A stretch of 64,000 nucleotides of DNA from Octopus vulgaris (taxonomy: Eukaryota). The number at the start of each line of letters is the position of its first letter. Within the stretch, counting starts at the first letter, position 1. The stretch is from positions 61,690,001 to 61,754,000 of the forward strand of contig OX597818.1 of the NCBI GenBank assembly GCA_951406725.2, given 5' to 3'. A program made the position numbers and the translations under genes. Shown piece after piece: positions 5,210 to 54,496 of the stretch. The notes beneath the pieces are model-generated. The model ran no database searches, had not been told where the DNA came from, and saw only the letters and a list, made by a program, of their open reading frames with translations.

Positions 5210-5610
5210 AGTTGACTTCGGTGGAATTTGAACTCAGAGCACAAAGACAGACGAAATACCTATTTCTTTACTACCCACTAGGGGCTAAACATAGAGAGGA
5301 CAAACAAGGACAGGCAAATGGATTAAGTTGAATATATCGACCCCAAAGAACCTCCATGTGGTCACTTAACTAGCTAAAAATAACAGCCAAATCCTTTCAC
5401 TTAAATCACACCCTACTGACTTTTATGAAACAAAACAAAAAAAAAAAAAAGAAAGAAAAGTAGGGGCCCTCATTAGACAATGTAATCGACCCTGAAAGGA
5501 TGAAAGGCAAAGTTGACCTCGGTGGAATTTGAACTCAGAACATAAAGACAGACGAACTACCGCTAAGCCTTTTTGCTCCACATGCTAACATTTCTGCAAG
5601 CTCACTGTCT
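5210..5610 (-). mobile_element. SINE family B with a 140-bp internal insertion
   Basis: Homology is broken at 5345-5485. Confidence 0.75.
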
Positions 5611-6516: not shown

Positions 6517-6735
6517 AAGAACCTCCATGTGGTCACTTAATCAGCTAAAAATAACAGCCAAATCCTTTCACTTAAATCACACCCTACTGACTTTTATGAA
6601 ACAAAAAAGGAAAAAAAGAAAGAAAAGTAGGGGGCCCTCATTAGACAATGTAATTCTAGATAAACAAAGATGTCACAGCTGGAATGCCTTTCATCATAGT
6701 TCTGTTGCATCTGGCTCACCTGGGAATAAACCAAC
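6517..6735 (+). repeat. Dispersed repeat family F (ctagaaatagcagccaaat...caaatcacac)
   Basis: Related copies at ~2240, 5345, 6315, 21470, 54445 and 56705. Confidence 0.6.
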
Positions 6736-12995: not shown

Positions 12996-13046
<51 letters not shown>

Positions 13047-13047
<1 letters not shown>

Positions 13048-13405
13048 GAAATATTAAAATAACTAAGTCTCTCTAAAAGAGAACAGCGACAGCGTTCCCG
13101 GAAAATAATAGTTATCGCCATACTAATATGGCATTCTTATAAAAATAAGAAAAAAGCTGTCCGCTTATTAGCTCCATGAGGCCATCGCCTACTGGTCTGG
13201 CTACGCTACATTGAAAAGGGGCAATACCCCGAAACGCGTCTGTAGCTGCCGGTCAAGTAGTGTGGAGCGACTGACCTCCCTTGTTCGAAGGTTATATGGA
13301 TACAGTTTGTGTATCAAATAGCTAACTTAAGGCGATGGCCTCATGGAGCTAATAAGCGGACAGCTTTTTTCTTATTTTTATAAGAATGCCATATTAGTAT
13401 GGCGA

Positions 13406-13412
<7 letters not shown>
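13047..13412. mobile_element. Penelope-like terminal-repeat fragment with an 83-bp inverted repeat, inserted in the (TA)n of a SINE
   Basis: Perfect inverted repeat 13108-13190/13330-13412, a minimal HHR in the spacer, and (TA)n on both sides inside the family A SINE at 12783-13640. Confidence 0.8.
13205..13246 (+). ncRNA. Minimal type I hammerhead ribozyme, U3-A8 core variant
   Basis: gctaca-TTGAAAA-gggg caata cccc-GAAA-cgcg-TC-tgtagc: 6-bp stem I, 4-bp stem II, palindromic mini stem III (acgcgt), GUC cleavage site. Confidence 0.85.
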
Positions 13413-13473
<61 letters not shown>

Positions 13474-14203: not shown

Positions 14204-14246
<43 letters not shown>

Positions 14247-14371
14247 ACATTAACAATTAAGGAACGGCCATAATAGGCCATTCACCCACTAGAAATAACA
14301 GCCAAAGCTTCTACCGCAAATAAAGATCAATTCCGTAAACAGGAGAAAATTAAAAAAACATTTACCCTGTA

Positions 14372-14478
14372 ATTTCTTGTACGGTATACCGTTTCATCTG
14401 CTGTTTAATGGTAAACTAACCTGATTAAATTAAATCAAGCCAATCTTCCATAAGCCCTCAGATTCTTCAGCAAGAAAT
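14372..14478 (-). ncRNA. Type I hammerhead ribozyme (- strand copy)
   Basis: Reverse complement of 15037-15143. Confidence 0.9.
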
Positions 14479-14855
14479 AGCTCAAGTCGGAACAGATATT
14501 TACACGAGGCATACCCAATCCTGCCTCGACAATATCTGACCTAAAATTTTCAAATCGTCGCACTCGCGCCAAATTTATCGGCAGCAAATAAATCGTCGAT
14601 TCCATTACGGAATTAACCAAAAAATTCATAATTAATCAATATAGGGTGGCAAGGAAAATTTTGTAGAATTTTTTTGCCACCAGCGCCCAGTGGGAAAAAA
14701 TTAAATAGTCATAGACCATTTTTAAGTTCAACATTAACAATTAAGGAACGGCCATAATAGGCCATTCACCCACTAGAAATAACAGCCAAAGCTTCTACCG
14801 CAAATAAAGATCAATTCCGTAAACAGGAGAAAATTAAAAAAACATTTACCCTGTA

Positions 14856-14962
14856 ATTTCTTGTACGGTATACCGTTTCATCTGCTGTTTAATGGTAAAC
14901 TAACCTGATTAAATTAAATCAAGCCAATCTTCCATAAGCCCTCAGATTCTTCAGCAAGAAAT
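14856..14962 (-). ncRNA. Type I hammerhead ribozyme (- strand copy)
   Basis: Reverse complement of 15037-15143, 484 bp from the 14372 copy. Confidence 0.9.
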
Positions 14963-15036
14963 AGCTCAAGTCGGAACAGATATTTACACGAGGCATACCC
15001 AATCCTGCCAAGGCAATATCTGATCCGACTTGAGCT

Positions 15037-15143
15037 ATTTCTTGCTGAAGAATCTGAGGGCTTATGGAAGATTGGCTTGATTTAATTTAATCAGGTTAGT
15101 TTACCATTAAACAGCAGATGAAACGGTATACCGTACAAGAAAT
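15037..15143 (+). ncRNA. Type I hammerhead ribozyme with extended stem II
   Basis: Stem I atttcttg (15037-44)/caagaaat (15136-43); core CTGAAGA (15045-51); stem II atctg/cagat enclosing a long G.U-rich hairpin; GAAA (15120-23); palindromic stem III acggtataccgt; GUA cleavage triplet at 15133-35. Confidence 0.9.
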
Positions 15144-15520
15144 TACAGGGTAAATGTTTTTTTAATTTTCTCCTGTTTACGGAATTGATCTTTATTTGCG
15201 GTAGAAGCTTTGGCTGTTATTTCTAGTGGGTGAATGGCCTATTATGGCCGTTCCTTAATTGTTAATGTTGAACTTAAAAATGGTCTATGACTATTTAATT
15301 TTTTCCCACTGGTCGCTGGTGGCAAAAAAATTCTACAAAATTTTCCTTGCCACCCTATATTGATTAATTATGAATTTTTTGGTTAATTCCGTAATGGAAT
15401 CGACGATTTATTTGCTGCCGATAAATTTGGCGCGAGTGCGACGATTTGAAAATTTTAGGTCAGATATTGCCTTGGCAGGATTGGGTATGCCTCGTGTAAA
15501 TATCTGTTCCGACTTGAGCT

Positions 15521-15627
15521 ATTTCTTGCTGAAGAATCTGAGGGCTTATGGAAGATTGGCTTGATTTAATTTAATCAGGTTAGTTTACCATTAAACAGCA
15601 GATGAAACGGTATACCGTACAAGAAAT
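15521..15627 (+). ncRNA. Type I hammerhead ribozyme (second + strand copy)
   Basis: Same sequence as 15037-15143, offset by 484 bp. Confidence 0.9.
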
Positions 15628-15851
15628 TACAGGGTAAATGTTTTTTTAATTTTCTCCTGTTTACGGAATTGATCTTTATTTGCGGTAGAAGCTTTGGCTG
15701 TTATTTCTAGTGGGTGAATGGCCTATTATGGCCGTTCCTTAATTGTTAATGTTGAACTTAAAAATGGTCTATGACTATTTAATTTTTTCCCACTGGGCCG
15801 CTGGTGGCAAAAAAATTCTACAAAATTTTCCTTGCCACCCTATATTGATTA

Positions 15852-15892
<41 letters not shown>

Positions 15893-16324
15893 TATATATG
15901 TACATATATATAGATGATGATGATGATGATGATGATGATGTGTGTGTGTGTGTGTTCGCATATATAATCATTAATGTCATCATCATCATCATCATCATTG
16001 TTTAAATGTTCAATTTTCTTTGCTTGCATGAGTCAGACAGAATCAAGAGATTTTCTACAACCAGATGCTCTTCCAGCTGCTAACCTTTCCCTTTTCTTAA
16101 AGAAGGTGATATTTCTTCATAGGCAGAAGTTTCCATAGATTATAAAATGAACGATGCCATGTGTATGGTGACGCTTATTTATAACAATTGTGCGATGGCA
16201 AGACAAGGGACACAAACATTCCCCCCCCACACACACAGACACATGGTCAGCTTCTTTCACTTTCTGCCAAAACAACTCATAAGTCTGGTTTGCTGAAAGT
16301 GCCATGAAATGAACCAATCCTATG

Positions 16325-18654: not shown

Positions 18655-18935
18655 CATTAAGAGTATGTGTGTCATTAAGGGTATGTGTGTTATTAAGGGT
18701 ATGAATGTCATTAAGGGTATGCGTGTAATTAAGAGTATGTCCATTATTAAGAGTATGTCTGTTATTAAGGGTATGTGTGTCTTTAAGGGCATGTGTGCTA
18801 TTAAGGGTATGAGTGCCATTAAGGGTATGAGTATCATTAAGGGTATGTCAGTTATTAAGAGTATGTGTGTTATTAAGGGTATGTGTGTTATTAAGGGTAT
18901 GTGTGTTATTAAGGGTATGTGTGTGACTAAGAGTA
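18655..18935. repeat. 18-bp minisatellite (attaagggtatgtgtgtt)
   Basis: About 15-16 tandem units. Confidence 0.95.
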
Positions 18936-19530
18936 TAGAGTACTGAACTACTTGCATGCTAATTTCATGAGTAGGTCGTTCCATTGATCACATCAAATAG
19001 AACACATGTCATGGTAACCAAGAGTCCTGCCAGTTTCTTTTACTTTTCCCATAATATGGAAATCGGGTAACCAATTCTATGAGTCCAAGGACTTGAGGCA
19101 ATAATGTACAGATGATGATGATGATGATGAATAAAAATATGGCACACTCTCTCAAGCACTGCATCAGACATTAGGAAAACTTACTGATTAAAAAATAATT
19201 CTTTTAGACTAATTATGTTGATTAGCACAGTATTTTTTTTTAAAAAAAACATGTTTACGCACAAACTTTTTAGTAAAATAATAGTAAATTTCATTTTACA
19301 TTTGATATTTTTTTCTTTTGTTTGCACATTTTTGTGAAAATCAAGTGGAACCATCGTCTGAATTGCTACAATTCCGAGTGAACCAATATTCTCAGACCAC
19401 TTAAACACTGCCAGCCTCTTTTTAACCCTGTGGTGTTCAGATTAATCAGTCAAATGAAACATTTACCAATTCACATGGTTTTGAATTAATCATTTCTTAT
19501 TTCAGAGGTTTGAGATTTCAATAATGCAGT

Positions 19531-21041: not shown

Positions 21042-23972
21042 GTTATTATTATTGTTATTATTAATTTCTGTTTTTGTCATAAGTAGTAGGTAAAAATAAA
21101 TTTTAACGAAAACTAACTTAAAAAAATAGCAATCAAATATATGAAAACTGTACGTTCATCAACGAAATCTTGCTGAAGACATGTCATAAAACAAAAATAG
21201 AATTTTTTTTTCCCTCTCTGGAAAAGATATATTTGTATGAAAATGCTATAAAAATTGATCACGCAAACGCCAAAGAATATTTTCGACATAAAGCTGTAAC
21301 TCTTAAAATATATTCTAAATATTGTATGATTTTTACAAAACATCGCTAATGGTTGAGTAAAGTTATGTTTCCGGAACTACCATAACAATCATTCTTTCTA
21401 ACTTGAAGCTAAACTGAAGATGTATAAACTCTTTCATTTTATCTAGGACATTATTTTGGATTGAAAGGGGAGCCACTATACACTTTCTCAACCTACTAGA
21501 AATAGCAGCCAAAATCTTCCTCAAATGCTGTCTTTAAAAAATTAAAAATTAAAAATAGATTATGTAATGCTAGATGCACAAAAAGATGGGATAGTCAGGA
21601 GTGGAACATCTTTGATCAATGAGAAATTGAAGAAACTGCCCAATTTCTATGTTGATGCCACAGCAAAAGCCCTTTTTTGCACACCCCACTAAAGGGACTG
21701 ACTACTGAACAAGCAGGGGAAAAACGGTGTTGATATGTTCCTTTAAACCCGTCTCACCAAGGACTTGACCTCTTCTCTAGTGCTGGTCCAACAAAAATGC
21801 ACCCAGTATACATGACAAAGTGGACATCAGAGGAGTGGTGAATGTTTTGAGTTGAAAGGACCTTTTAGTCTTGTCCTGTTGAGGACTTAACGCCATGAGG
21901 AACTGCACCCAGTACACTCTTTTAAAGTAGTTGGGAACAGGAAGCACATTCCAGCTGTTGGTATTTCATTGAGTTTCTACATTACTTCAGTTCATATGGC
22001 TTTCAAGAATAGGGACCCAGTTATTAAAGAAAGTTGCCGGTAATAGATTAGCTTTATACTTGGGAACCAGAGGTAAGCATTAGCTCTTAAAAACCTCTTG
22101 TGGACTAAGGGGACATTTACATATTTTTACATTTTTCTTATCTTACGAACAAAAAAACAAAAAACAAACCTGAAATGTTAGTTTATGAAATTTCCTAATC
22201 TTCTAAAACATCTGATATGACATTGGTTGTATTTTCCACTACAGTGTGTTTGAATCAATAACTAACCAGCCGAAGCCAGCTAATTTTCTCCCTGAATAAA
22301 ATACATTCTCAAACCCCCAACCCCTTTACATAAGCATATCACTGCATAATTTTCTGCTGAATACTAGCTAAGATGTCGAACTATTCATCTATTCTACCAC
22401 CAGGTAACTGATATTGGCTGTAGATAACATTTCAAAGGGTTTTCCCAAATGGCTAACTATTTCAATAACGGCTTGCAGCTTATCAATTACTTTAACATCA
22501 ATAAGCTGGCAAGATATGAGAGTTTCAGCACCAATTTCTATTATATATACACATATATAGATCTGAATGTATTCGTGGCATAGTAATACCGTGTAAAGAC
22601 TAAATAATTGTTAAATAGGTATGAATAAGTTTAATCTTTGACTTATATTTTGCTTTGTTAGCTGAATGGTTAGAAAAACTGTGGGAAAAGCAAAATCAAT
22701 TGTTTTAGAGAGGAAGTCAGTTCTTTCTCACTTAACACACAGTTTTCGAAATGAACACACAATCAAGCTTAATTGAAATTTGGAAAAATCTTTAAAAGAA
22801 AATAAAAAAAAAAAAAAAAAGAATTCAATGATGACTGAATCATTTTTGAAAAGACAAAAAGACAAAAAAAAATTCTATTGAAACACTTTAAGAAAATTGA
22901 AGATATTGTATTTGAATTCTAATGAAATTTCAGTAAGTGAAAGTAAAGAATTTGACAACTAAGGACAGAGATATTTTTGGTCAATAATAATATTAAAGAG
23001 ATTTTATAAACTAACCCATATTTAAGCTGTTCTGCTCTTTGAGAAAACTAATTTCCTCTTGGTGCAATATATTGACTGAAAATCCATTAAAACAAGTAGA
23101 AAATTGTAAAACAAAAACGAAAATAATACCCAAGTAGAATATGAAGATATTCATGCCCTACATTTGTACAAAGAGACAAAGCTGTAATAAAGAAGATAAT
23201 AGATGGCTTTAAAGATTTTTCAACTTCATTTTATAAACTGCTGTTATAATACGGTTTGTCAGATTTGTCAAATCTATTTCATATAATGTAAGATTCAAAA
23301 TAGGAAATTGCTTTTTTATTGACAAAAATATGTAAAAGAAATAAGCCTAAAGCAAACCTTAAATGCAGAAATCTGGAAAATATTTAATGAAAGGAAGTTC
23401 AATATTTTTCTTTGCATATAGAGATTAGTGTAAATCTCCCTTTAATGTGTATTAAATACATGAACAATACTGTATTGGATTGATAGCGAAATGCTTGGAT
23501 GTTCGGAAAAATTGAAGCAGAAAATGATATTTTAAATGTTCCCCCCACTAATAAATAAATAAATGAATAAACAAATAAAAACTTCATAGGGTGGGTTTGC
23601 TTGGACAAATTTCAAAATATAATGGGAGGACTATGAAGTTTTAAAAATGTCTTTCATCTAAGTCACATGGAATATGAATTATATTGGTTTATTATTTTTA
23701 CTTTATTCCTTTTTTTAATTTTTTTGTTCTTTTTTTTTTTTATTTCTTTGTCCATTTTCCCATGTTAGCTGTGTTTGTACAAATATATTATTCAGGCGTT
23801 GTTTTCCAGTTGGATGCCCTTCTTGTTGCTAACTCTTAACTGTTTTTCAAGTTTGGGGGGTCTTTTATTTCACTCATCTTTGAAGATGCAAAACAAGTGG
23901 ACAACATGTTGACAGAAGGGATAACACTGCTGCACATAGATGGTCACTTGTGTACAGCATCCATGTAAACAA

Positions 23973-53493: not shown

Positions 53494-54496
53494 TAGTGAG
53501 AAGCTTGCATCCCAATCACATGGTTTTGGGTTCAAACCCACTGTGTGGTATCTTGAGCAAGTATCTCTACTATAGCCTTGGGCTAGCCGAAAGCCTTGTG
53601 AGTGGATTTAGTAAAGAAAAACTGAAAGAAGCCCTACTTGTGTGTATGTGTGAATAGAAAACGAAGTTCAGATTGAACCCATTTCAGTACAAAAATGGTT
53701 TTCGAGCAGTAGTATATACATCCAAAATGTGATCAATATTACTGCAGATAAAAAAGTAAAACATTATACCATTGCAGATATAGAAGTATACGTAGGTGTG
53801 TGCATATGTGAATACACAAAAATTCTAGAATAAAGCTGCATGTTTCATATTTAGTATATTTTTTTTTCTCCCAGCTAACATTTTTATAATCATATGAGAA
53901 TACAGCTGCCTATATTTGTGTAGTTTTCACTTGTAAATAATTTTGTTGTTTATTCAAATAAATTACAACTATTAAACTCTGTTTATTCCAGCTTACTGCC
54001 ATCCTGACTATAATCTTCTACCACATTTATGACTGACAGCAGACATGTTGACAAATGATAGAAAAATTCTCTTTTATTAATAGTCAACAAATTAGCGAGA
54101 TTGTTTATCTCTATGATACACCAGATAAAAATCAGTGAAAAAGAACAAAAAAAAACAAAACAACTTTTTGTGAAAGTGAATTCTGCAATAGATATGTGAT
54201 GTGTGTAGTGACATCTGTCATTAAAATATCTAGTTTATAAAAACAACAAAAATTAGACAGAAACAAAGATAAGGAAACAAAAGTACGACTTTTATGACAG
54301 CAATTTAAAACAATTAGAAGCCATGGAGTCATATAAGCAATATCTATTTGAGCAACTATCTATGGTAAAGCAAATCTATCTCATGATATTATTAGGTACA
54401 GTATGGGGATAAAAATGCAATCTTTTATGTTGCAGGAACCAATGTGGTTTCTCTACCAACTAGAAATAGCAGCCAAACTTTCCTCAAATCACATAG

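Follow-up and report, generated by a model that had tools for sequence, protein, structure and literature searches.

An important question raised by this locus is what kind of element occupies positions 14246-15854 of the 64-kb window (the whole stretch of octopus DNA that was analysed), and how it came to be inserted there. A sequence-only reading had placed a repeat with a 484-nt unit at these bounds, with (TA)n on both sides, and the analysis reproduced all three features. Its estimate of about 3.3 tandem copies holds for the amount of unit sequence but not for the layout: the element is not a simple tandem array and consists of two divergent arms of 1.6 and 1.7 units on opposite strands (14246-15023, minus; 15015-15854, plus), with four hammerheads in total (Table 1). 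Tandem Repeats Finder reported only 1.8 copies of the unit in the window. The claimed absence of a reverse transcriptase (RT) or transposase was also confirmed, as no open reading frame (ORF) of 120 aa or more overlaps the element; judged on ORFs, it has no coding capacity and no LTR-type structure, as is typical of retrozymes. The modal unit of the family is 485 nt long (42 of 130 full units are identical), and both full units in the window are one base short of it. Overall, the window element is a real feature, one young copy of a protein-free mobile repeat.

Table 1. Positions of the element, its parts and a related short motif in the window.
Feature	Position	Strand	Remarks
Short-repeat motif	5374-5391, 6545-6562, 21491-21526, 54455-54477		like unit positions 59-96
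Left target flank	14205-14246		(TA)n
Left arm	14246-15023	-	778 bp (1.6 units), from unit position 326 at the inner end to 134 at the outer (S1)
Conserved hairpin 1	14262-14283	-	about 13-16 nt before S1
Further copies of hairpin 1	15232-15253, 15716-15737, 14746-14767		
Type I hammerhead	14372-14478	-	predicted cut between 14380 and 14379
Cut-to-cut monomer	14380-14863	-	484 nt, 99.2% identical to the plus-strand monomer
Type I hammerhead	14856-14962	-	predicted cut between 14864 and 14863
Head-to-head junction	15015-15023		arms share 8-9 nt at a unit-internal inverted repeat
Right arm	15015-15854	+	840 bp (1.7 units), from unit position 365 at the inner end to 235 at the outer (S2)
Type I hammerhead	15037-15143	+	68-nt stem II arm; predicted cut after 15135
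Cut-to-cut monomer	15136-15619	+	484 nt
Type I hammerhead	15521-15627	+	predicted cut after 15619
Tail	15751-15854	+	105 nt, S1-to-S2 stretch; at the right outer end, almost wholly missing at the left
Conserved hairpin 2	15803-15839	+	about 15-17 nt before S2
Further copies of hairpin 2	15318-15354, 14645-14681		
Right target flank	15855-15912		(TA)n

Each unit contains a complete type I hammerhead (8-bp stem I, CUGAAGA, GAAA, palindromic stem III and GUA). A loose hammerhead descriptor matched the window four times, always within the element, and matched none of 5000 dinucleotide-shuffled units; together with the self-comparison, it bore out the earlier claim of one complete ribozyme per unit with predicted cuts after 15135 and 15619. 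The statement that all copies carry it stands in so far as four hammerheads are present, two of them lying on the minus strand. Across the retrieved family loci 408 hammerheads were parsed, and in the predicted local fold of the window unit the hammerhead is the minimum-energy structure. The covariance-model search that had been proposed as a check returned no Rfam hammerhead for the element, neither at gathering score in the whole window nor among the 21 matches at E up to 10. This is likely due to the long stem II, and a match to a library model is not required by the published definition of non-LTR retrozymes.

Comparative evidence for the ribozyme came from 10 full units of relatives that are 77-91% alike. 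Eight of the 17 core pairs of stems I, II and III have changed on both sides, and over the whole unit structure so have 10 of 81 pairs. None of 500 shuffles scored as high, and slid controls gave at most 2 pairs. Since the sequences are related and the structure was taken from the first row, these values are support rather than a probability; with this reservation, the covariation indicates a hammerhead structure kept under selection, as in retrozymes. Position 7 of the hammerhead shows all four bases. Circular folds gave z scores of -6.5, -6.3 and -3.6, with 60 shuffles for each. In A, B and C (see below), stem III reads as a full or near palindrome, which would permit a two-unit ribozyme, as described for amphibian retrozymes. 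The octopus unit carries a predicted self-cleaving motif.

The genome searched comprises 2.8 Gb in 227 contigs, about 30 of them large. With the monomer as a query, 266 matches were found in the 40 scored of 1293 candidates, and exact patterns returned at least 209 subfamily-A hammerheads and at least 681 junctions of the outer end S2 with (TA)n, while the reversed-pattern controls gave 0. The family therefore has at least 681 dispersed insertions, and the proposed copy-number check excludes a single-locus unit: hundreds of dispersed copies have (TA)n flanks. Subfamily B has a unit of 491 nt (91% alike) and family C one of 490 nt (77%); intermediates exist as well, and all retain the core. Tracing the diverged contig ends led solely to further ORF-less subfamilies. 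Arrays reach 14 units per arm, head to tail and with nothing in between. Moreover, the earlier suggested check for a linked PLE (Penelope-like element) ORF with RT and GIY-YIG domains showed none joined to the element in 40 of 40 loci of a position-ordered set. Tandem units each with a type I hammerhead (four of four in the window), the dispersed multi-locus distribution, the absence of a joined ORF and the covarying hammerhead support the identification as a retrozyme. As far as sequence can tell, the octopus family is a real, young family of non-LTR retrozymes, a class already known.

Several peculiarities of single copies and of the window were recorded as well. The longest array (L060:737-9594), one arm of which has 14 units, is a mosaic with respect to two variants; about 300 bp away from it lies an insertion of subfamily B. 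At two loci (L048 and L062) deletions and AT-rich stretches mar the outer units, probably through read or assembly error beside (TA)n. In one minus-strand unit of the window, three substitutions at 14526-14529 (unit positions 336-339) perfect a local hairpin, and two of them match subfamily B; they may stem either from template switching between subfamilies or from quasi-palindrome correction. Families A, B and C all conserve a stretch of 18-38 nt within unit positions 59-96, and common short repeats at other places in the window have a motif similar to it. Finally, an 18-bp minisatellite with 15.6 copies is found at 18656-18936.

Numbered from the predicted cut, the outer ends of the arms fall at one of two sites: S1 (125-136, mostly 131) or S2 (228-246, mostly 237), each about 13-17 nt past a conserved hairpin. 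Among the 61 two-armed loci of A and B, 55 pair S1 with S2, six have one off-site end and none has the same site twice. In subfamily A (39 loci, L058 being left out as a duplicate of L057), 27 loci are two-armed, of which 24 show S1 + S2 and 3 have one off-site end, with 0 same-site pairs; the corresponding numbers for B are 34 of 40, 31, 3 and 0. Both of these sets were picked by score. For the position-ordered set, 40 further loci were drawn from the list of S2-(TA)n junctions as they follow along the chromosomes, one already sampled being skipped. Its inverted arm ended at S1 in 30 loci and at S2 in none, was off-site or tiny in 4 and was missing in 6. In family C (30 rows), S1 + S2 was found in all 19 two-armed rows, 17 of them distinct. 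The earlier notion that arms start and end at unrelated phases is therefore right for the inner ends, which vary, but wrong for the outer ends, which are fixed at two family-wide sites. An inverted 5'-truncated copy together with a tail on one end is what defines PLE insertions, and the footprint of the octopus element is this PLE "tail plus inverted copy", with a tail of about 105 nt here instead of 30-40 bp. The previously suspected PLE link is supported by it (cf. Craig et al., 2021; Frangieh et al., 2024). In the available text of the papers compared (PMC7229834, Li et al., 2026, PMC8557442, PMC11167929), the retrozyme unit and the PLE footprint of inverted copy and tail are not joined.

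Sequence variants tell what the two arms were copied from. Variants fixed in one arm were also fixed in the other in 105 of 105 comparisons (A 43/43, B 62/62), where one variant can score once per direction. Eighteen variants that are private to one locus among those sampled occur, at 13 loci, in every unit covering the site, and 13 of these variants span both arms. Moreover, 139 variants are confined to single units, so the assembly does keep differences between units, and 14 are partial, in 8 loci; four unit types occur among the 16 units of L060. These patterns indicate that in most insertions a single monomer sequence was read over and over, a minority being mosaic. The use of one S1 and one S2 at the outer ends, in turn, argues for priming at two sites.

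The reading we favour is a non-LTR retrozyme inserted by a PLE RT-endonuclease that twin-primes both cut strands on one RNA, probably a circle, and we hold it to be right on a modest balance of probability. More specifically, the insertions may be fossils of twin-primed rolling-circle reverse transcription, in which a PLE dimer sits on two hairpins of one 485-nt ribozyme-made circle and each subunit extends one strand; for this fuller version the chances seem slightly short of even. We infer cleavage, a circle, a dimeric PLE protein and twin priming in the following order. The units would be transcribed, the hammerhead would cut out a monomer of roughly 485 nt, and a host ligase would close it. 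The PLE protein (a dimer by others' prediction) would bind the structured domain with hairpins 1 and 2 and nick both (TA)n strands. As the end statistics suggest, priming would start near +131 (S1) from one DNA end and near +237 (S2) from the other, leaving the one-sided 105-nt tail. Both RTs would re-read one monomer past the cut site, which, going by the variant patterns, would give arms of up to 14 units. Judging from the junctions, the two cDNA ends would join at short overlaps, often at unit hairpins, and repair would fill the palindrome. Biochemically, a PLE protein was found to cleave and extend both strands, with starts at two internal RNA sites, which Frangieh et al. (2024) tied to the inverted copy and the one-sided tail; against the favoured reading, that study saw no strand difference in start site in vitro, and the hammerhead was dispensable. 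The available part of that paper (PMC11167929) states that the steps building the tandem, inverted and tail structures of PLEs are unvalidated.

The same twin priming might also proceed without a covalent circle, the RT jumping from the 5' end to a 3' end of linear cleaved monomers or reading through a long, uncleaved multimer. We regard this as unlikely, though by no means negligible. The inner ends speak for it in two of three sets: in the position-ordered set (off-site and tiny inverted arms excluded) 14 of 69 arms end at +1 to +30 past the cut against 4.6 expected, and among 42 long A arms 10 do so against 2.7, whereas subfamily B shows no enrichment (6 of 70, 4.5 expected), the phase being biased there by the query. 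Such a pile-up points to some linear, cleaved templates; the RT may have run off a cleaved 5' end, or pausing and the local U-rich tract may be the cause. Mosaic arrays (L060, L171, L172 and L186 among them; 14 cases in 8 loci altogether) are likewise not explained by one circle alone. Furthermore, unprocessed RNA was the main in vitro PLE substrate (PMC11167929, available part), and 8 of 9 Xenopus retrozyme dimers did not cleave (available text of Li, Clavereau and Pollet, 2026, 10.64898/2026.07.22.740005). On the other side, the 69 position-ordered arms cross the cut site 72 times, and the head-to-tail joints are exact in nearly all units. Copying round a circular or multimeric RNA, as envisaged from the sequence at first, fits the homogeneous arms in general, but a multimeric donor leaves a private variant fixed in every unit of both arms unexplained. 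Circles, moreover, are shown for coral, mussel and axolotl retrozymes in the available text of PMC7229834.

Quite improbable is that the units are truncated pseudo-LTRs (pLTRs) of an unsampled autonomous PLE and have no life as monomer RNA. Precedent exists, as 24 of 57 Xenopus retrozyme families resemble known elements, nearly all PLEs (Li et al., 2026, available text), and of 6136 GIY-YIG candidates in the octopus just 150 were scored and 50 loci read. In these 50 loci blastn and nhmmer turned up no helper resembling the unit in sequence, which counts against the favoured reading; they gave just an independent insertion and an 18-nt match (E 0.4). The uninterrupted head-to-tail arrays are hardly what truncated pLTRs would leave, and the structure is kept around the whole unit in families only 77% alike. 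An RT + GIY-YIG ORF, the mark of an autonomous PLE, is absent from the element and joins it at 0 of the 40 position-ordered loci; RT pieces near 8 screened loci were separate wherever coordinates or sequence were compared. Two such fragments, near L178 and L064, were considered as parts of the element and rejected as separate insertions. One insertion outside pure microsatellite (L178:3094-3856) has an apparent target-site duplication of 11-12 bp, a single case that hints at the stagger of the two nicks; within (TA)n such duplications are unreadable.

A single priming, after which the cDNA snaps back and copies itself, the tail being made by endonuclease resolution of the second end, at the other site, is very unlikely. 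It would account for the concordance of the arms and for junctions at unit hairpins, and Craig et al. (2021) ascribe the tail to endonuclease resolution (PMC8557442, in the part available). However, in 18 of 84 loci, the window element included, neither arm is contained in the other, which indicates that both target ends reached the RNA, and either arm can be the longer one (the S1 arm in 34 of 84); snap-back was rejected as a general route because neither arm fits within the other in those 18 loci. DNA-level satellite expansion, palindrome formation or an assembly artefact is scarcely credible: perfect palindromes in microsatellites do assemble poorly, and the ends of L048 and L062 are error-rich, but hundreds of dispersed loci have fixed ends, unit-specific variants are kept, and the unit, the head-to-tail joint (which also exists in DNA) and the (TA)n junction are present in contigs of independent runs.

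Eight contig sets were compared for signs of expression; as these are assembled contigs, starts, ends, strand and level cannot be read from them. In three sets guessed to be RNA (X1, X4 and X6), A>G and T>C made up most of the changes, and some loose ends were heavily altered. Two large sets taken for DNA (X15 and X16) showed a mixed spectrum, and X2 and X5 had no excess of A>G or T>C. At a site separating A from the older subfamilies, the older letter made up 9% of summed depth in X6, 86% in X15 and 73% in X16 under the same settings, the kinds of run being guessed. Together, spectra and depths hint weakly that the units are transcribed, that fold-back RNA undergoes A-to-I editing and that A is preferentially expressed, with run kinds guessed and animals differing. 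At window position 15820 (unit position 201), A>G accounts for 57-94% of contig depth in three guessed-RNA runs and is almost absent in two DNA-like runs. The same change is genomic in all covering units of L061 and in one unit of L062. This could mean that edited RNA has been retrotransposed, or else that most expression comes from one locus of this kind. Run X2 had a dip in depth at the cut site, which was discounted because X1 lacked it.

Paired ends were also found in two other families. The genome has a young, intact two-ORF PLE family (16 copies, L101-L116) encoding a 479-aa ORF1 and a 781-aa ORF with an RT domain and, at its C terminus, a GIY-YIG domain, which we take to be Neptune-like from its domain order and cysteine motif. 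Its terminal repeat is roughly 500 bp long and its tail 40 nt, and it contains a hammerhead-like motif that is degenerate, having U3 and A8. Twelve of the 16 copies end at one site and 4 have the 40-nt extension, nearly all into (TA)n; the two that are two-armed both pair a short end with a tailed end, which speaks for the PLE link of the octopus retrozyme. An unrelated second retrozyme insertion lies 800 bp upstream of the element in the window (13043-13413), with a 362-nt unit, two arms in (TA)n and a short hammerhead with a UUGAAAA core. In that family two fixed ends 63 nt apart are paired in 14 of 16 distinct loci, the exceptions being an off-site end (L301) and a possible same-site pair (L304, 226/238). 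Since both families pair their ends likewise, the rule may be general.

So far, co-occurrence and likeness to pLTRs have been the grounds on which a helper and a way of copying were proposed for animal retrozymes. Hundreds of young octopus insertions give three rules: two fixed starts are used, one of each; one template serves both arms; and the ribozyme site is passed repeatedly. The model names a 485-nt RNA, two hairpins and two start positions, and so can be tested in an existing in vitro PLE assay. If it is true, twin-primed rolling-circle reverse transcription would explain by a single mechanism both how retrozymes move and how PLEs in general come by their pseudo-LTRs, inverted copies and one-sided tail.

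In LINE-1 twin priming, two target ends prime on one RNA and leave two parts inverted head to head, with microhomology at the join; these parts have little overlap, and the position of the second site is arbitrary. In the octopus element, by contrast, neither site varies, and the two arms read the same sequence again. The likeness to metazoan non-LTR retrozymes lies in ORF-less tandem units with one type I hammerhead each, a G+C content under 50% and coexisting PLEs (PMC7229834; Li et al., 2026; available text of both). The monomer is not unusually long, as had been supposed, since its 484 nt lie inside the 51-972 bp given for metazoan units in the accessible part of Li et al. (2026). Those retrozymes are described as tandem arrays only, as far as the available text of the same two sources goes; the divergent second arm, the fixed sites and the tail belong to the octopus element, and so does a stem II arm of 68 nt, which is missed by the Rfam models. 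For metazoan retrozymes, circles and cleavage have been shown (PMC7229834, in part), whereas for the octopus unit they are predicted. In the giant squid genome 235 hammerhead loci were counted, the elements not being described in the available text (PMC6962438). The literature searched, mostly without subscription papers and without Repbase, so that a prior description is possible, held no description of a cephalopod retrozyme or of retrozyme twin priming. Like Chlamys MRC1, the octopus family would be a non-autonomous PLE partner with multicopy head-to-tail insertions (PMC8557442, available part). With EN+ Penelope-like elements, as portrayed in the accessible text of PMC8557442 and PMC11167929, it shares the inverted 5'-truncated copy at the 5' end, a tail on one end, two internal RT start sites, AT-rich or (TA)n targets and a hammerhead upstream of the starts. 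It differs from them in having no ORF, a tail of 105 nt against 30-40, arms that reach 14 whole units, a hammerhead that is full and not minimal and, unlike the in vitro study, a strict use of one of each site.
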